From Candidatus Poribacteria bacterium (GTDB taxonomy: Bacteria; Poribacteria; WGA-4E; JAJDTR01): a stretch of DNA of 64,000 nt. A program made the translations under genes and the position numbers. Where the stretch lies: positions 416,001 to 480,000 of the forward strand of contig CBDCTK010000002.1 of NCBI GenBank assembly GCA_965222225.1. The letters run 5' to 3'. The notes below the pieces were generated by a model. It had not been told where the DNA came from. It was given only the letters and a program-made list of their open reading frames with translations, and made no database searches. Each line of letters starts with the position of its first letter. Position 1 is the first letter of the stretch. This document shows, one piece after another, positions 32,648-39,312 of this stretch.

Positions 32648-33034
32648 CTAACGCGATATCTCATGGGTCGGGAAATCTGCTGGCATTGTGATTTCCAACA
32701 CTTCGAAGTCGTCGGAATACTCCAACACCTCATGCTTGACGTTGGGCGCTTGATACCAAACATCTCCGGCTTTAACATGAATCTCGCCGATGTCTTCCAG
32801 GTAGACCCGTGCCGATCCCTTGATTAGGTAATTCATCTGGAATTCCAGATCATGATAGTGATAGCCCATAGGGCCTTCACACGTTTCGTTTGCGCGAATG
32901 ATGTGTGCCATCACTTTGCCATTGGTAGCCTCCTTTATTTCGAGGCCACGGTATGACATATACGATCGCAGACCTTCTGTCCAAGTGGCGTCCGTTGCAT
33001 GTGCAGCAAATGATTTGCCTGTCGCTTCAGCCAT
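32648..33034 (-). CDS. Cupin domain protein
   Basis: HYH...Q...GD...H; RBS AAGGAGG before ATG 33034. Confidence 0.85.
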   Translation of the reverse strand: MAEATGKSFAAHATDATWTEGLRSYMSYRGLEIKEATNGKVMAHIIRANETCEGPMGYHYHDLEFQMNYLIKGSARVYLEDIGEIHVKAGDVWYQAPNVKHEVLEYSDDFEVLEITMPADFPTHEISR

Positions 33035-33343
33035 CGTGTCGTTCCTCCTTCTTCTCTGGGATAAAGGAAAAATACAAGGAATCGATTGGTAATGCCCTGT
33101 ACATTCCACCTCTTACGCCACAGTGAATCGCCATTACGAGGCACTAGAGTATTCAACTGCATAAGTCCTATAAACCTCAAGCGATTATAGCATAACATCC
33201 GAAAAAGACAACGAAAAACCTCCTTGGGGCGTTGTGTCATGATGTGCTAATCCCGACCTTTTGACTGTATTGACGGGCATCTATTGATCGAAGTCGATTA
33301 GCCGGGACAGCGTTTGTCTGCGCGAATCGTATATAGAATAATA

Positions 33344-33372
33344 TTGACAAAAATACCGCCTTAATATACTAT
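33344..33372 (+). promoter_or_regulatory. sigma-70 promoter
   Basis: TTGACA-17 bp-TACTAT about 100 bp upstream of 33473. Confidence 0.72.
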
Positions 33373-33472
33373 GCCCCCAACTCTAATCGTCGTTATTTGG
33401 ACGGATTGATTGGGTGAGAACTCATGCCAATTTATAATTCATTTTAACCGCAAACTAAGGGAGTAGATAGAG

Positions 33473-34504
33473 ATGAGTGATGAAACAATCCGAGTTGGCG
33501 TTATTGGCGCAGGTGCAAACACGACTTCGCGCCATATTCCGGGACTACAAGCCATTGATGACGTTGAAATTGTCGGAGTTTGCAATCGAAGCCGTGAGTC
33601 ATCGGAGCGAGTTGCAAAGGAATTCAACATTCCAAAGACCTATGAGGGGTGGCAAGACGCAATCTCCGACCCGGACACAAATGCCATTGTCATTGGGACA
33701 TGGCCATATATGCACTGTCGTACGACAGTGGCGGCGTTGGAGGCGGACAAGCACGTGATGTGCGAGGCGCGAATGGCGATGAACGCCCAAGAAGCACATG
33801 CAATGCGCGACGCATCTCGCGAGAAACCCCATCTCGTTGCGCAGATTGTCCCGTCGCCGATGACGCTAGGGCAAGACAAGGGGATTACGCGGCTCATTGC
33901 CGAAGGCTTCCTTGGTGAAGTGTTGGTAATTGAGATACGTAGCGGGGGTCTATTCCTCGACCCCGATGCACTGCTGCACTGGCGCGAAAACTTCGACTTG
34001 AGCGGACTCAACATTATGAGCATGGGAATTTGGTATGAAGCCGCCATGCGTTGGGTGGGGGAAGCAACGCGTGTGATGGCAATGGGAAAGACCTTTGTCA
34101 GAATGCGTAAGGACGCCGAGGGTGTCATCCGTTCCACCCGTATTCCCAATCACATTGATGTGACTGCCGACATGGCATGCGGCGCTCAATTGCACCTTCA
34201 AGTTTCAAACGTTGCGGGGCTGGCTGGACCAGACGAGGTCTTCCTGTTCGGAAGTAATGGAACGCTTCGTATCGCCGACGACACGCTCTACGGAGGACAG
34301 AGGGAAGATTCCGCGCTTTCAGAGATCTCGCTTTCGTCCGACGAGATAGGCGCGTGGCGTGTGGAAGAGGAGTTTGTGAGTGCGATTCGAGGAAACGGAC
34401 CCATAACCCACACTAATTTTGAGGATGGCGTGAAGTATATGGAATTTACTGAAGCGGTGAACTTAAGCATGGAAACGGGGACGGTGGTCAGCTTGCCGCT
34501 GTAG
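33473..34504 (+). CDS. Gfo/Idh/MocA oxidoreductase
   Basis: VGVIGAG, KHVMCEARMA. Confidence 0.9.
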   Translation: MSDETIRVGVIGAGANTTSRHIPGLQAIDDVEIVGVCNRSRESSERVAKEFNIPKTYEGWQDAISDPDTNAIVIGTWPYMHCRTTVAALEADKHVMCEARMAMNAQEAHAMRDASREKPHLVAQIVPSPMTLGQDKGITRLIAEGFLGEVLVIEIRSGGLFLDPDALLHWRENFDLSGLNIMSMGIWYEAAMRWVGEATRVMAMGKTFVRMRKDAEGVIRSTRIPNHIDVTADMACGAQLHLQVSNVAGLAGPDEVFLFGSNGTLRIADDTLYGGQREDSALSEISLSSDEIGAWRVEEEFVSAIRGNGPITHTNFEDGVKYMEFTEAVNLSMETGTVVSLPL

Positions 34505-34691
34505 GCGGAAATACGACGCAGCGACCGACAAAGAACCGAATCTCCTCATACCGGATCTTATTAGTGGGCGCTTATCGCTTCAGTGCGATACAGTGGTGTT
34601 ATAGATGCCTCACCGCTCCCTGAACACCAATAGCTGGAATCGGCGCATAGTGCCTACCAGCACTCCTGGGGAAATTGAATGGCGCAACTGC

Positions 34692-34808
34692 AAAGCGTGG
34701 ATTGAAAACGGCCTTCCGCGCCACAACGATTATTTGAGTGCCCTAGCAGGGATTGCCGAAAGATTGGGCGTTGAGACATTTTGGGATGTGCGTGAAACTG
34801 ATAGATAG
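34692..34808 (+). repeat. Left island boundary: 3' remnant of a possible Ldh_2-family gene, direct repeat of 57552-57668
   Basis: Encodes KAWIENGLPRHNDYLSALAGIAERLGVETFWDVRETDR*, colinear with the right-hand copy; preceded by PGEIEW. Confidence 0.75.
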
Positions 34809-35000
34809 CGGAGATTAACTAAAGCGATGGCAAGTTATGCCATTTCGCTTGAATAATGTTGCGGAGTTAGTCGTTAGAGACTTCTCAAACAAAATCACCC
34901 TAGAAGCCTTCCGTTTTAGATTTCAGTGTTAAGTGTTAAGGTAAGGTACAGAACACTGGGAAAGAATTGCTTCTAGGGTGATTTCTGAGCTATCTTAAGT

Positions 35001-35441
35001 CTACTCGTTGAATGAAACCTTGATAATGTGTCCTTCCAGATTCACCTTGGCTCTCGCAGATTGAGGAACGATACCTCCAAACATATTTGAAGCGCGATAT
35101 TTAGTCAAGACAATGATATGATCTCCGTTGTCTATGTATCCTGTTTCCACGTGCTTATAGAAATCAGGATCTAGGAGATTTTCCTTAATGCGTTACGTAA
35201 GATTGATGTGAGAACCGTCCCAGAAATGAAATTGAGCTTTGATTGACTTCTTCCTTTCCAACTCTTTTTGTTCAGCTTCAGTCAATACAGGCTCAGTTTC
35301 AACTTCTTCCTTGTCTGATTCTATCAATTCATCTTCATTCCCTCCAGAAAAGATTCCAATCAGAATCAAAGCGACAATCCCTATCACTATGAATGCCGAT
35401 CGTTTTTCCTTCTTGGTTAATTCCTCCCATTTCTTACTCAT
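35001..35441 (-). pseudogene. Membrane-anchored hypothetical protein with internal TAA (35193-35195)
   Basis: Frame continues after DGSHINLT*: RIKENLLDPDFYKHVETGY...YRASNMFGGIV...; RBS GGAGG. Confidence 0.7.
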
Positions 35442-35454
35442 TTTCCCCTCCATG

Positions 35455-35488
35455 AAAAAGAGGGGACAACCCGCAGGCTGCCCCTCTT
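35455..35488 (-). terminator. Intrinsic terminator or attenuator
   Basis: AAGAGGGGCAGCC-TGCG-GGTTGTCCCCTCTTTTT on the minus strand. Confidence 0.75.
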
Positions 35489-35593
35489 ACTGAGGCAGAC
35501 CTAACGGGAATATCATTACGTTTCCCATTCAGGTTCTCCCTTTGTTTTTGTATTGACGCAATACCTATGCGCCACCCGAATTCACGGGATCAA

Positions 35594-35622
35594 TTGACAG
35601 AAATCCCTACAGATGTTATAAA
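35594..35622 (+). promoter_or_regulatory. sigma-70 promoter of a putative antisense sRNA
   Basis: TTGACA-17 bp-TATAAA with extended TGn. Confidence 0.72.
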
Positions 35623-35628
35623 GACAAC

Positions 35629-35730
35629 AGGTGACGCAAGTGAGTTTCCCACTCGCATACCTTTGCGTTGCCTATGGCGTTCCTCTGCCTGTGGATACTG
35701 GCATATCTGCAGGCATGAACGGCATTTTAT
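35629..35730 (+). ncRNA. Putative ~100-nt two-hairpin small RNA
   Basis: Starts 7 nt after the -10 box; stems 35629-35673 and 35674-35725 have G-U pairs on this strand only; ends in a U-rich tail. Confidence 0.55.
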
Positions 35731-35757
35731 CGTAGGAAAAATCTATCGGTGATTGTC

Positions 35758-35787
35758 ATGATATACGGGAAGCGCGATGTATGTCAA
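35758..35787 (-). promoter_or_regulatory. Convergent sigma-70 promoter
   Basis: TTGACA-18 bp-TATCAT on the minus strand. Confidence 0.55.
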
Positions 35788-35889
35788 CTCAAAACTCTCT
35801 ATACGTTTTGAGGGAATTAGATTTGCACCGGGCAAGGAAATATGGTAAAGAAGTGAACTTGTACGTTTAACAAAAAGGGAGGAAATAGA

Positions 35890-36123
35890 ATGTTTATAAG
35901 CAAAAAAGGCGATAATCGAATTCACAATCTTAGAAATGCCAGCACTATATATTTCCAGAAAGTGAGAGACGGTCATTACACTATCTTCGCCAGATTTCCT
36001 ACAGAAGAAGATAATTCACTAAAGAAAATAGCAGAAGGACTATCAGATAAGGAAGTTGTATTCACATTTATTTCGATTAAGAATGCGCTCGCCGAAGGTA
36101 AGAATTTCTTAGAGTTACCATAA
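35890..36123 (+). CDS. Small hypothetical cargo protein (77 aa)
   Basis: RBS GGGAGG; ends at the hairpin at 36129-36152. Confidence 0.65.
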   Translation: MFISKKGDNRIHNLRNASTIYFQKVRDGHYTIFARFPTEEDNSLKKIAEGLSDKEVVFTFISIKNALAEGKNFLELP

Positions 36124-36152
36124 AAAAAGGCTGAGAGCGTCAACTCTCAGCC
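36122..36152 (-). terminator. Intrinsic terminator downstream of the transposase
   Basis: GGCTGAGAG-loop-CTCTCAGCC followed by T7 on the minus strand. Confidence 0.75.
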
Positions 36153-36210
36153 AAACCATATTCATCCCCCACAGGGAAAATTCTATGGCACCAAAGGAAG
36201 GTGATTTCCT

Positions 36211-36384
36211 ATGGCAAGATTCTATACGTCTAAAGGGAAAGTGATAAAATTGAGACCAGTTAAGGATTTCCGTGAATTCTTCAAGAAAAGGCAAGCATGG
36301 AGAACATGGACACCGGAATGCCACCGAGATCTCAAGCGAAAATCCTCTCCATATAGAAACCGAAGATATCCTTTTCCTTCCTGA
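36211..36384 (+). CDS. Putative basic micro-protein (57 aa) convergently overlapping the transposase 3' end
   Basis: RBS AAGGAAGGTGA; MARFYTSKGKVIKLRPVKDFREFFKKRQAW...; below the ORF-track cutoff. Confidence 0.45.
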   Translation: MARFYTSKGKVIKLRPVKDFREFFKKRQAWRTWTPECHRDLKRKSSPYRNRRYPFPS

Positions 36385-37192
36385 GATTATACTTGTAGCA
36401 GGCTTCTCGAACATACATCGGAAGCCACTTGACGGAGTAGTGATGATGCGTTCCGTGGAAGGCTCTCTTGAGTAACGCCCAGAAGGATTCAATCGTATTC
36501 GTGTGAGTGAATCCATCTTCGCTCACATATTCCTTGGATTTGTGACTTATCACATGTCGTTCCATTTCCGTATTCATGATGTTGTATGCTTGAAATTCAT
36601 CTGTCATGAGAGTAGAATCCTTTGAGGCATTCCCTAGGATAAAATCTTTGAGATTCACGCCAGTTAGTTTCCGCATCATCTGAGCAACAACTCTCCCGCC
36701 ACGCTCTACTATTCCAACAACTGGCGTCTTCTTTGTTCCTCTACCTCTCTTGTTACCTCTGCCTCTTGGCTTTCCACCGACATATGTTTCGTCCACTTCC
36801 ACGATTCCATTGAGAAGCGCATCGTCTCCCTCCGCCATCTTTTCTCTGATTCTCATTGCCATATACCACGCTGTCTTCTGATTCATATCCAATTCACGAG
36901 CGAGCTGGCACGAGGAAACGGATTTTTTGGCGTTGGAAATAATGGAAATTGCCATGAACCATTTCCTGAGAGGGACTCTCGTTTTGTGAAACATAGTCTG
37001 AGCTGTAACAGTGAAGGTTGAGTGACAATCGTGACAATTCCAGCCATGGTCAAGATGTAACTTATTCCTGCGACCTACATGTGTACTTCCACAATGGATA
37101 CAAGCGACTCCGTCAGGCCATCGGAGAGACTCAAGATGTAAGATGCAGGAATCTTCGTCTGGGAAAGTTTCCATAAGGTTAAAGATGTTCAT
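36332..37192 (-). CDS. IS1595-family transposase
   Basis: Zn ribbon CIHC...CHDC, VEVDETYVGG, MTDE, HTNTIESFW. Confidence 0.96.
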   Translation of the reverse strand: MNIFNLMETFPDEDSCILHLESLRWPDGVACIHCGSTHVGRRNKLHLDHGWNCHDCHSTFTVTAQTMFHKTRVPLRKWFMAISIISNAKKSVSSCQLARELDMNQKTAWYMAMRIREKMAEGDDALLNGIVEVDETYVGGKPRGRGNKRGRGTKKTPVVGIVERGGRVVAQMMRKLTGVNLKDFILGNASKDSTLMTDEFQAYNIMNTEMERHVISHKSKEYVSEDGFTHTNTIESFWALLKRAFHGTHHHYSVKWLPMYVREACYKYNLRKEKDIFGFYMERIFA

Positions 37193-37363
37193 GGCACGAA
37201 CTATACGTACCGATGAACTATGAAACTGTCACCTCAGAGAAAAACGTATAAGATAGGTTGGTTCATTTGATCCAATTTACGAATTTTTGAGTTGCTATTG
37301 CGTACGAATCTGTATCTTTTTGACTTTACTTTTCAATTAATGCAAGTTATAATAAATGTCAAA

Positions 37364-37406
37364 TAAAAAAAGCAGGACATCTGTGGCTAGACAGAATGCC
37401 CTGCTT
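37364..37406 (-). terminator. Intrinsic terminator after the micro-protein genes
   Basis: AAGCAGGGCAT...ATGTCCTGCTTTTTTT on the minus strand. Confidence 0.7.
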
Positions 37407-37423
37407 GGTTGAGTCAAACGCTA

Positions 37424-37513
37424 TTAACGTCTGACTCTTCTGACGGTGACAACCTTCTTGACGCGAATCCTGCGTACACGTCTAACGATTGTCACCGTTT
37501 TTCGAACAGCCAT
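37424..37513 (-). CDS. 29-aa Arg/Val-rich cationic peptide
   Basis: MAVRKTVTIVRRVRRIRVKKVVTVRRVRR; RBS AAGGAGGT; tandem TAA TAG stops; terminator follows. Confidence 0.65.
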   Translation of the reverse strand: MAVRKTVTIVRRVRRIRVKKVVTVRRVRR

Positions 37514-37609
37514 GGTATTACCTCCTTGGCTTATTTATGAGGAATTGCCCAAACATCAATTCCCCGTGAATATTCAGACATGGTTTCCGTTCGGGATGTC
37601 TGTAAACGC

Positions 37610-37732
37610 TTATTTGCGTTTGGTACACTTTTTGTCTTTTTCGACAACAGTGGTTCTGGGATTACGTTTCGCAGTTTCCTTTTTGACGTATCTCCCAGTT
37701 ATTGCACTTCGTGCCTTTCCTTTGGAAGCCAT
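37610..37732 (-). CDS. 40-aa basic micro-protein (RSAITGRYV...PxTTV type)
   Basis: MASKGKARSAITGRYVKKETAKRNPRTTVVEKDKKCTKRK; RBS AAGGAGG; promoter TTGAAA-17-TATCAT at 37787-37815. Confidence 0.75.
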   Translation of the reverse strand: MASKGKARSAITGRYVKKETAKRNPRTTVVEKDKKCTKRK

Positions 37733-37979
37733 TGTTATTCCTCCTTCTGTGGCGCTGATTCTAGCAGGATTGGCGCCATGATGAGGATGATATCACACTG
37801 AATCCTATTTTTCAACTAAAAATTCATTCCAGCCTACAGAATCGGATTTTACACCCCTCTCCACTATCCTACCATTGATTGACGCTCTAATCGCCCTGTG
37901 TGACAAATACGATGGATTAAAAGGCTTATATTTGCATCTTTAACTATCAGTTTTGAGGTGAATTACTCAAATGTGATAC

Positions 37980-37999
37980 TTATCCACAAGTTATCCACA
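37980..37999 (+). promoter_or_regulatory. Two tandem consensus DnaA boxes
   Basis: TTATCCACA-AG-TTATCCACA. Confidence 0.7.
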
Positions 38000-38084
38000 A
38001 TTAACAGACTAACGCTGTAAATCTATTTCCCCTTATACTTATACGCATTGAGCGAAAATGGGAAGTCTCTAACGACTAATTCCG

Positions 38085-38834
38085 AACAATTTTCAGTTCT
38101 AGTATGCGATACGATGCCGGACGTGCAATTGATAGCTAATGGCCAGTGCTTTCCACGATACCGCTATCGGAAACCGTCGGAGCAGGGATCTGAGCTTCCG
38201 GGTGTTGAGGAGGATTCTCATTGTGTTGATAACATATCGGACACGGTGTTGCGTGTCTTCCGTGAGCACTATTGCAACGACGCAATTACGAAAGACACTA
38301 TCTTCGACTACGTCTATGGCGTTCTGCACACGCCCAGATATTGTGAAGAGTTTGCAAACAACCTGTCAAAGGAGTTGCCGCGTATCCCTTTCGCGCCCGA
38401 TTTCTATGCGTTCGCAGAAGCGGGGAGAGCGCTTGGCGAACTCCACCTCAGTTACGAGCGATGTGAACGATACTCGCTGAATCTCGTATTCGCACATGAA
38501 GGGGAACCGTTGCCTAGACACTTCCTAACTAACTGAGAAGGCGATGCGTTTCGCGGACGATGAGAAAACGACGCTCAGGATCAACGAGCATGTGAGTTTG
38601 TCCGGCATTCCGGCGGAAGCGCATCGGTACATCGTCAACGGGAGAACACCGCTGGAGTGGTACATTGATCGGTATAGAATTAAGAAGGACAAAGAGAGCG
38701 GGATTGTCAACGATCCGAATGGGTGGTTTGAGGATCCGCGTGACTTGGTTGCCGCGATTGAGCGGATTGTGTATGTGAGTGTGGAGTCAACGCGGATTAT
38801 TGAGGGGTTGCCGAGGGACGTGACGGGACAATGA
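38085..38834 (+). pseudogene. Type ISP restriction-modification enzyme C-terminal domain, 5'-truncated at the IS end and frameshifted near 38530
   Basis: GQCFPRYRY, ITKDTIFDYVYGVLH, NLSKELPRIP, YIVNGRTPLEW, SGIVNDPN. Confidence 0.88.
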
Positions 38835-38943
38835 GAGGTGTAAGGGTTTCAGTATAGTGTGTTTCCATCAAACGAAGATTTAAGGAGAGATCCGATGAGA
38901 AGACTTAGAAGAGGACTTGGATTTTTGGAGGTCTGCAATTTAT

Positions 38944-39312
38944 ATGTCTCCAGCCGCGTTCTCTGTTATCATCAGCGTGTCTCTTGCGGGTTGTGTAGCC
39001 AGTAAACAGCCTTCAACGCGGGAAATAATGAACTCTTGGATGGGAAACCATATTTCACAGGTTATCCGTAGCTGGGGAGCATATGACCAAGTCGTTTCAG
39101 ATGGTGCAGGTGGAAAAATCTACATTTGGATAACATACCGCGACGATAGTATTCTTGATATCTTGCCTCCTCCGCGCGGCAATAGTATCTCAGCAGCAAT
39201 TGCTCGAGTACAGCGAGCTGAAATAAGGAGGCGCGCCGCTACACCGCTAAAGAGGGAAATGTATGTAGGCCCAAATGGCGGCGTATACTCGTGGAGAGTT
39301 TCAGGGGAATAA
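38944..39312 (+). CDS. Putative lipoprotein
   Basis: Lipobox LAGC; MNSWMG...WG...DGAGGKIYIW. Confidence 0.6.
   Translation: MSPAAFSVIISVSLAGCVASKQPSTREIMNSWMGNHISQVIRSWGAYDQVVSDGAGGKIYIWITYRDDSILDILPPPRGNSISAAIARVQRAEIRRRAATPLKREMYVGPNGGVYSWRVSGE

Follow-up and report, generated by a model that had tools for sequence, protein, structure and literature searches.

A conserved non-coding module in Candidatus Poribacteria

The DNA analyzed here, referred to as the window, is a 64,000-nucleotide (nt) stretch of the genome of a Candidatus Poribacteria bacterium (assembly GCA_965222225.1, contig CBDCTK010000002.1, positions 416,001 to 480,000 of the forward strand), and all coordinates below are window positions. 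Within it, an insertion sequence (IS) of the IS1595 type carries a transposase gene and, on the same strand, a gene for a small protein with an N-terminal membrane segment (Table 1). The latter is preceded by a structured leader with its own minus-strand promoter and with an intrinsic terminator just ahead of the Shine–Dalgarno (SD) sequence, and this leader contains a convergent plus-strand promoter predicted to drive a small antisense RNA (sRNA). The initial annotation had read the segment as an antisense-RNA or attenuator-like switch spread as IS cargo, and every sequence feature that it listed is present where it had been placed. As far as sequence comparison can tell, the results presented below make it reasonably probable that an antisense RNA made from inside the leader controls both the translation of a short leader open reading frame (ORF) and read-through of the terminator, and that the module is specific to Poribacteria.

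A DNA search with positions 34855–36330 as the query was run against 61 genomes and matched nine of them, all of genus g1. Every match fell on window positions 35437–35814, with a length of 230–380 nt and an identity of 69–78%. The module was present in eight of the nine other genomes of this genus, as well as at another place in the window's own genome (G000), and was not found in the 52 genomes of other genera. The conserved block runs from the minus-strand −35 box to a few codons inside the downstream gene, and because it is conserved at 69–78% while its surroundings are not conserved between related genomes, the similarity is more than chance. Overall, positions 35437–35794 represent a conserved non-coding element detected at 18 loci in 11 of the 151 genomes of the order, nearly all of them in one genus. 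The comparative set consisted of 17 of these loci, as L023, which looks identical to L019 in the alignment, was omitted from later analyses. A coding explanation was considered and dropped: the plus-strand ORF of 61 amino acids (aa) at 35567–35752 has no family match, and the alignment includes indels whose lengths are not multiples of three.

We then searched with a covariance model built on the 5′ half of the leader (R1). This model matched 9 of the 11 genomes of the family, and at E ≤ 1e-4 it matched 11 of the 151 genomes of the order (f1 8/10, f2 1/104, f3 1/29, f4 0/7). At E ≤ 0.01, 13 of 151 genomes of the class were matched, including two loci at 25–26 bits (L046 and L047) that were later rejected. 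One of this pair sits inside a 1022-aa ORF, and the L047 match is mainly a promoter-like TTGACA-17-TGATATAAT box before two ORFs that resemble, by eye, ribosomal-protein genes. A pattern scan of 185,579 species genomes recovered 10 loci, all in Candidatus Poribacteria, plus three others (Fulvivirga, Bacteroidales, and Brocadia) that have no R1 match and were taken as chance, as were five pattern matches on metagenome contigs, none of which fit R1. Viral contigs yielded no pattern match to the module, and plasmid and phage collections no blastn match to the whole element. The initial annotation had also expected no known RNA family here, which agrees with a scan of positions 33000–39000 on both strands against Rfam 15 (E up to 10): no match fell within 35440–35800, and the three weak matches obtained (15–22 bits against cut-offs of 42–88) all lay outside that interval.

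Several copies of the module appear decayed, namely L042 (without the 3′ half), L045 (without a clear downstream gene), and L022 (without hairpin H1). The first of these keeps hairpins H1 and H2 together with the antisense promoter, and may be an orphan sRNA gene with the core TCGTG. Conversely, the leader is missing from L017, where the terminator, the SD, and a homologue of the window's regulated gene are present.

Table 1 Features of the module and of the element that carries it
Feature	Position	Strand	Details
Sense (leader) promoter	35758–35787	−	TTGACA 35787–35782, 18-nt spacer, TATCAT 35763–35758
Structured 5′ leader	35442–35751	−	~310 nt; from conservation and covariation
Site A	35654–35667	−	Part of leader hairpin H2 and of the overlap; core AGGUAU
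Hairpin H3 (site B)	35555–35573	−	Stem covaries; loop UAGGUAU 35561–35567
SD of the mini-ORF	35536–35542	−	AAGGGAG; SD-like box kept in homologues
Mini-ORF	35487–35528	−	13 codons, MGNVMIFPLGLPQ; start within hairpin H4
Candidate antiterminator arm	35492–35498	−	CUGCCUC; would pair with terminator 5′ arm GGGGCAG 35484–35478
Intrinsic terminator	35453–35484	−	Stem 35484–35463, then U-run
Regulated gene	35001–35441	−	Small protein with N-terminal membrane segment; SD GGAGGGG 35445–35451, ATG 35441
Antisense promoter inside the leader	35594–35622	+	TTGACA 35594–35599, 17-nt spacer, TG 35614–35615, TATAAA 35617–35622
Predicted antisense sRNA	35629–35730	+	Hairpins 35629–35673 and 35674–35725, then TTTTAT; 3′ end uncertain
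sRNA recognition loop (predicted)	35657–35662	+	AUACCU; 3′-side internal loop of the 5′ hairpin; complement of site A
Left terminal inverted repeat	34855–34887		IS1595-type element; 33 nt, 85% complementary to the right repeat
IS1595-family transposase	36332–37192	−	Pfam DDE_Tnp_IS1595 (PF12762) 8.2e-36; Zn_ribbon_IS1595 (PF12760) 1.8e-08
Right terminal inverted repeat	38059–38091		Abuts remnant of a Type ISP restriction enzyme gene

Convergent promoters and a predicted antisense RNA

The minus-strand promoter scored 11 out of 12 in a consensus scan, with a predicted start near 35751, and its −35 and −10 boxes align in most homologues. The same scan did not return the plus-strand promoter, the −10 box of which ends in A where the scan rule requires a T. 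The plus-strand promoter nevertheless retains its TG and ATAA at all 17 loci, the first T of its −10 box at 16, and its TTGACA at 15. The spacing of this promoter is constant, and the 14 bases between its boxes vary in sequence only. Since the box at L047 lies upstream of, and reads towards, the two ribosomal-protein-like ORFs (by eye), it suggests that boxes of the TTGACA-17-TGATATAAT type act as promoters in this phylum.

Next, we evaluated which strand of the leader is the better folding one. Over the 100 nt past the predicted antisense start, i.e., in the overlap region, 11 of 12 distinct loci have the antisense strand as the more stable fold (means of −47.1 kcal/mol for antisense and −37.8 for sense), with 51 G-U pairs against 29. 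For the remaining leader the preference is reversed, and the sense strand folds better in 12 of 12 loci (−53.7 vs −45.2; 58 vs 33 G-U pairs). Evaluated in 11 distinct arm pairs, the lower stem (10 bp) of the antisense 5′ hairpin contains 88 Watson–Crick cells together with 14 antisense-only wobbles, a single sense-only wobble, and 7 other cells. The stems of the overlap region thus appear to be built for the plus strand. The initial annotation had stated that the stems of the plus-strand RNA and the distal hairpins of the leader carry G-U pairs on their own strand only. This holds broadly in the window and also in the homologues, with H3, the terminator, and the antiterminator candidate carrying pairs of the minus-strand type, but “only” is slightly too strong for the second antisense hairpin, which also has one sense-type U-G column. 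At the position of the recognition loop, a 6–9-nt internal loop is found in 15 of the 17 predicted sRNA folds, L018 and L022 folding otherwise there. Overall, comparison among loci lends support to the convergent promoters and to the predicted small plus-strand RNA.

A putative recognition code repeated within the leader

The segment CGCATACCTTTGCG at 35654–35667 (site A) occurs again as CGCAATACCTATGCG at 35557–35571, where it includes the loop of hairpin H3 (site B). This second site is not part of the overlap and precedes the SD of the leader mini-ORF by 12 nt in the window and by ~12–20 nt in homologues. Within each of the 16 loci that retain both, site A and the H3 loop share an identical core of 5–8 nt, and nine versions of this core are found (AGGTA, TGACA, AGACA, TGGTA, TCGTG, AAGCA, TCGTA, TGGAG, and TAGACA). 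In a permutation test on 10 non-redundant loci, with site B restricted to the H3 window, the summed match between A and B was 58 as opposed to 37.1 ± 3.4 in permuted sets, none of the 200,000 permutations reached 58, and the cognate pair was the unique best in 8 of 10 cases, figures to be read with the origin of the loci, largely one genus, in mind, as are all permutation figures given here. This test replaced a noisier first version in which site B was the whole downstream leader and 8 of 100,000 permutations reached the observed value. RNAduplex runs of 110-nt against 190-nt segments returned long meaningless duplexes without cognate preference and were not used.

We reasoned that identical A and B sites cannot pair with each other and, as no complement of the core is found at a consistent place in the sense leader, no common complement other than the plus-strand copy of site A was found. 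The H3 loop exists in 12 distinct forms, 6 of which begin with UUNR, a U-turn motif familiar from the loops by which antisense RNAs recognize their targets. That the sRNA could pair with a second site upstream of the ribosome binding site of the mini-ORF is the best supported of the initial proposals, with A and B co-varying across loci.

Leader architecture and the mini-ORF

From 5′ to 3′, the leader comprises the two long hairpins H1 and H2, the small hairpin H3, an A-rich linker, the SD and short ORF (the start of which lies in hairpin H4), the terminator, a maskable SD, and the regulated gene. With 12 sequences, RNAalifold predicted 55 pairs, 17 of which show compensatory changes. Paired cells were counted in MAFFT alignments that had not been fitted to any structure. 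In the 5′ half (H1 and H2), 95.3% of cells are paired and double changes occur at 11 of 30 pairs; none of 500 shuffles reached the observed values, and slid controls were 28–47% paired. The 3′ half (H3, H4, and terminator) is 94.1% paired with double changes at 4 pairs. The H3 stem accounts for double changes at three of its six pairs, and the arms of H4 (35530–35534 and 35499–35503) are paired in 100% of cells, with an AU-to-UA swap that splits the sequences 6:6. The terminator has a 9-bp stem with six GC pairs, and 89.8% of its cells are paired in homologues. Taken together, the collected homologues form a conserved family with covarying hairpins and give comparative support to what had been proposed for the window, namely a structured leader on the minus strand that a terminator closes directly before the ribosome binding site.

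Two further helices would connect the terminator with its surroundings. One is the pairing of the candidate antiterminator arm with the terminator 5′ arm, and the other is an anti-SD helix (CCCCUC:GGAGGGG) in which the terminator 3′ arm would mask the main SD; the latter is 85% paired, with one-sided changes only. Judging from the alignments, it is plausible that both helices are real. The sense leader also displays two conserved single-stranded blocks, CAGAGGAAC and UAGGCAAC. By inspection of the alignments, a long-range pairing of UAGGCAAC with the terminator is not kept in the L021 group, and the pairings UAGGC:GCCUA and GGCAAC:GUUGCC, which would join the base of H2 with the terminator, were dropped as they are likewise not kept in that group.

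All 16 loci that retain the mini-ORF part have an SD-like box with an ATG or GTG after it. The length of the mini-ORF ranges from 5 to more than 45 codons across loci, its peptide is not conserved, and the conserved bases of this part are read in differing frames between loci, with the short versions ending at a UAG in the 3′ arm of H4. What is conserved at the mini-ORF is the RNA and not the peptide. At L039 (= L025; ~1790–2130), a ~140-aa ORF (MGRPNDLKLSDVRYLG...) replaces the mini-ORF; it is an insertion between H3 and the terminator and uses the mini-ORF SD.

Regulated genes and mobile context

The genes downstream of the module vary by locus and encode a YHYH-domain protein, putative lipoproteins, and other small proteins of 70–180 aa. 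All of these proteins start with a hydrophobic N-terminus (by inspection). The YHYH match (NCBIfam, 32.7 bits with a cut-off of 30) is the only family match that reaches its cut-off among the downstream proteins; lipocalin-like matches in two downstream types are below cut-off, and the window's own regulated protein has no Pfam or NCBIfam family above cut-off. The start of the latter is taken as the ATG at 35441, which aligns with homologues, and not as the ATG at 35453 given in the ORF list. Some downstream genes are broken: the window gene has an internal TAA, those of L021 and L044 stop after 30 codons, and that of L015 starts with ACG. In the window, the in-frame TAA lies at 35193–35195, and the frame runs on for 63 codons to the stop at 35001–35003, including a WDGSH-type C-terminal part; the L017 homologue is likewise split in two frames.

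The block that holds the module has a G+C content of ~40%, as opposed to 50–55% around it. A related arrangement is found at L043, where a 28-nt inverted-repeat pair encloses both transposase and module, so that 2 of the 18 loci (the window and L043) have the module inside IS1595-type inverted repeats with a transposase. In addition, L039 adjoins a transposase fragment, and L021, L015, and L044 adjoin IS3-type genes, while the remaining loci have no IS within the 3 kb read. Spread as IS cargo, as initially proposed, thus describes these two loci and does not extend to most others.

No second full-length copy of the window element was found among the 40 of 97 candidates scored, nor in the DNA search. 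According to contigs from four runs that cover 34500–38400, three further samples contain the element in nearly identical form and at low depth. The left flank (34500–34860) is represented in runs X4 and X5 by contigs with 5–20 times the depth of the element contigs; the insertion may be limited to part of these populations, or a related strain may be the source of the flank contigs. The IS1595 family makes an 8-bp target-site duplication according to ISfinder, and no such duplication is seen here, as the flanking 8-mers of the window element differ. On the right, the element has cut a Type ISP restriction-modification gene, the C-terminal remnant of which occupies 38048–38834 in two ORFs (Pfam Type_ISP_C, 1.3e-38 and 2.3e-16), and the N-terminal part of which is absent on the left side of the element. 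An element that abuts a truncated gene whose N-terminal part is gone fits an adjacent deletion after insertion.

Other features of the element and genome were recorded alongside. The genome has at least 39 copies of a different IS1595-family element (e.g., L002–L010) that is 68% identical to the transposase region 36362–37102 over 735 bp, and the leader module is in none of its scored copies (40 of 97 candidates). Upstream of the transposase, the window element encodes on the minus strand two very basic small ORFs with strong SDs (37432–37732): one of 40 aa at 37610–37732 (MASKGKARSAITGRYVKK...), and a second of 29 aa starting at 37513 that is, by reading, rich in arginine and valine. They are followed by a terminator-like hairpin at 37357–37436, with a weak match to the Rfam family ncr982 (22 bits, cut-off 50). 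Finally, just inside the left IS end and downstream of the cargo gene, positions 34892–34984 form a perfect inverted repeat of 16 nt around a 61-nt loop.

Proposed mechanism and alternative explanations

Three independent comparative signals, i.e., the conserved antisense promoter, the strand switch in folding, and the second recognition site, together support a reading of the module as an antisense-controlled attenuator. In the sequence of events that we propose, a sigma-70-type promoter on the minus strand would start the ~310-nt leader, and the plus-strand promoter would make an sRNA of ~45–100 nt. The internal loop of this sRNA would kiss the H3 loop, 12 nt (window) to ~20 nt upstream of the mini-ORF SD, and the sRNA would also pair with its fully complementary template region. 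Such pairing may alter both the access of 30S subunits to the mini-ORF and the folding of the leader (H4, antiterminator, and terminator), and leader folding would in turn decide whether the terminator and the anti-SD helix form or the exported-protein gene is read through. The most likely role of the sRNA, if par RNA II, pT181/pIP501, and pCF10 Anti-Q are taken as models, is that of a repressor exerting negative feedback on the cargo gene in proportion to dosage. A more ambitious version of this proposal, which we put forward tentatively and at somewhat less than even confidence, is that the module represents a new, self-contained, sequence-programmable class of antisense switch with at least nine natural codes, in which the sRNA's own target leader contains the code twice, as the sRNA template and as a hairpin loop beside the leader ORF and attenuator, so that the sRNA acts away from the place of its own gene, and which moves between genes and mobile elements, IS1595 cargo included.

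Several observations weigh against control by an antisense RNA and attenuation as outlined here. The antisense −10 box ends in A at 13 of 17 loci, in T at 3, and in G at 1, whereas the final T of a sigma-70 −10 box is usually its most conserved base. Only the window and the L021 group have a clear U-rich tail past the second antisense hairpin, with a weak one in L013; since the tail is not conserved, the 3′ end of the predicted sRNA is not defined. The antiterminator helix (CUGCCUC:GGGGCAG) is 90.5% paired with one-sided changes only and not a single double change. In addition, no covariation-backed pairing linking the sRNA target to the terminator was found, so that the step from sRNA binding to read-through is one that we infer. 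Paralogues of one genome do not always differ in their cores: AGGTA is common to the two copies of G000, and AGACA to L015 and L043. Finally, because most loci come from a single genus, the permutation figures overstate independence.

Among the alternatives, an unlikely one is a leader that acts only in cis, either riboswitch-like or protein-dependent. Here, H1 and H2 would bind a ligand or protein controlling the terminator, no functional antisense RNA would exist, and tertiary RNA structure or the binding of a factor would account for the promoter-like boxes and for the A/B repeat. The covarying sense hairpins, the conserved single-stranded blocks, the platform formed by the terminator and the anti-SD helix, and the absence of a final T from the putative antisense −10 box in 14 of 17 loci would all suit such a leader. 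It is harder to reconcile with the H1/H2 stems being better as antisense in 11 of 12 loci, or with 14 antisense-only wobble cells against 1 sense-only in the lower H2 stem. Identical cores that change together need a common complement, and none was found in the sense RNA; nor would a protein track nine different cores. The regulated genes share no function hinting at a common ligand, and Rfam returned no match even at E up to 10. It is also improbable, albeit not exclusive of an antisense attenuator, that the plus-strand promoter mainly serves a divergent upstream gene, with control exerted by convergent transcription (interference or an excludon-like arrangement) and no discrete sRNA. Candidates would be the 77-aa ORF at 35890–36123 in the window and other small ORFs elsewhere: a small ORF on the same strand begins ~230–260 nt past the antisense start in the window, in L018/L022/L042, and in L039, there is no conserved terminator after the second antisense hairpin, and prgX of pCF10 is expressed in this way (PMC3181467). 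These upstream ORFs are however mutually unrelated, L012, L020, L014, L016, and L019 have no such ORF within 600 nt, and interference alone leaves the co-variation of A and B unexplained.

The initial annotation had further suggested an addiction module, that is, a type I toxin–antitoxin locus in which the exported protein or the mini-ORF peptide is toxic and the antisense RNA is an antitoxin that stabilizes mobile DNA. This now seems quite improbable. Convergent promoters, direct repeats read oppositely as in par of pAD1 (PMC7472228), the hydrophobic start of the regulated proteins, the broken state of several regulated genes, and the position of some loci within or beside IS elements are all compatible with it. 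On the other hand, there is no conserved toxin, the PADLOC library not having been scanned for one, and no bidirectional terminator, the mini-ORF varies from 5 to more than 45 codons without a conserved peptide, and the downstream exported proteins are unrelated, several of them broken, and at 70–180 aa far above typical type I toxins in size. The addiction claim is therefore not supported. As for a conserved remnant or chance similarity without any regulatory role, the decayed copies (L042, L045, and L022) are what could be cited for it, and we regard it as highly improbable, given that the conserved stretch has its exact limits at the promoter and the start codon, with flanks that differ, that compensatory changes occur at 15 pairs, and that sites A and B co-vary. 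Compared to these alternatives, the antisense-controlled attenuator is the explanation that we prefer.

Comparison with known antisense systems

A search of full-text literature returned no report of an antisense RNA and no relevant report of a riboswitch in Poribacteria. The module would be the first regulatory RNA candidate in these uncultivated bacteria, and it documents IS1595-type elements whose passenger gene is predicted to carry its own RNA control circuit. It also brings a ready comparative data set, is testable without culturing the organism, and its natural code variants could serve as orthogonal RNA regulators.

Among known systems, the par locus of the Enterococcus faecalis plasmid pAD1, a type I toxin–antitoxin locus formed by RNA I/Fst and RNA II, has convergent promoters and direct repeats (DRa and DRb) that are read oppositely, with a pairing that begins as a loop–loop kissing contact and sequesters the start of fst (PMC7472228). 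As in par, sites A and B form a direct repeat near a translation start; only site A, however, lies inside the sRNA gene here. Unlike par, the module has no Fst-like or other conserved toxin peptide, and it has no shared bidirectional terminator, the terminator at 35453–35484 being outside the sRNA gene. The sRNA gene lies wholly within the leader of its target, so that full complementarity exists too, and an intrinsic terminator precedes the regulated gene, the targets being varied exported proteins of 70–180 aa.

In the countertranscript-driven attenuation of pT181 repC and pIP501 repR, the promoter of the antisense RNA lies in the leader in convergent orientation, and an intrinsic terminator is located just before the ribosome binding site, an arrangement that the module shares. 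In contrast to these plasmid systems, the module precedes a gene other than a replication gene, it resides on the chromosome or in IS elements, and no preemptor-type pairing of the sRNA target with the terminator could be shown. To our knowledge, pT181 and pIP501 have neither a second target site outside the overlap nor a translated leader ORF.

The prgQ/prgX region of pCF10, with its Qs leader and IRS1 terminator, has convergent promoters, transcripts that overlap by 223 nt, possible transcriptional interference, a leader with a small ORF, and a small RNA from the antisense 5′ end (Anti-Q) that boosts termination in the leader (PMC3181467). The module as predicted from sequence likewise has convergent promoters, overlapping transcripts, and a small leader ORF, but its predicted overlap is only ~120 nt, and it has neither a PrgX-like repressor nor a conserved peptide. 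Nor does a conserved gene follow the antisense promoter. We know of no counterpart of the duplicated recognition core in pCF10.

The SprA1/SprA1AS pair of Staphylococcus aureus includes a cis-encoded regulator whose functional contact is located outside the overlap, near the ribosome binding site. It is a toxin–antitoxin pair with a 3′ overlap, whereas the overlap in the module is in the 5′ leader and its distant site copies the site inside the overlap. Overall, the module belongs to none of the systems compared: toxin, replication gene, conjugation gene, and bidirectional terminator are all missing from it, and we know of no earlier example of a code duplicated outside a 5′ overlap. If the proposed mechanism holds true, a recognition loop duplicated outside the antisense overlap would bridge cis-antisense attenuators and the dispersed-repeat pairing of the par type.

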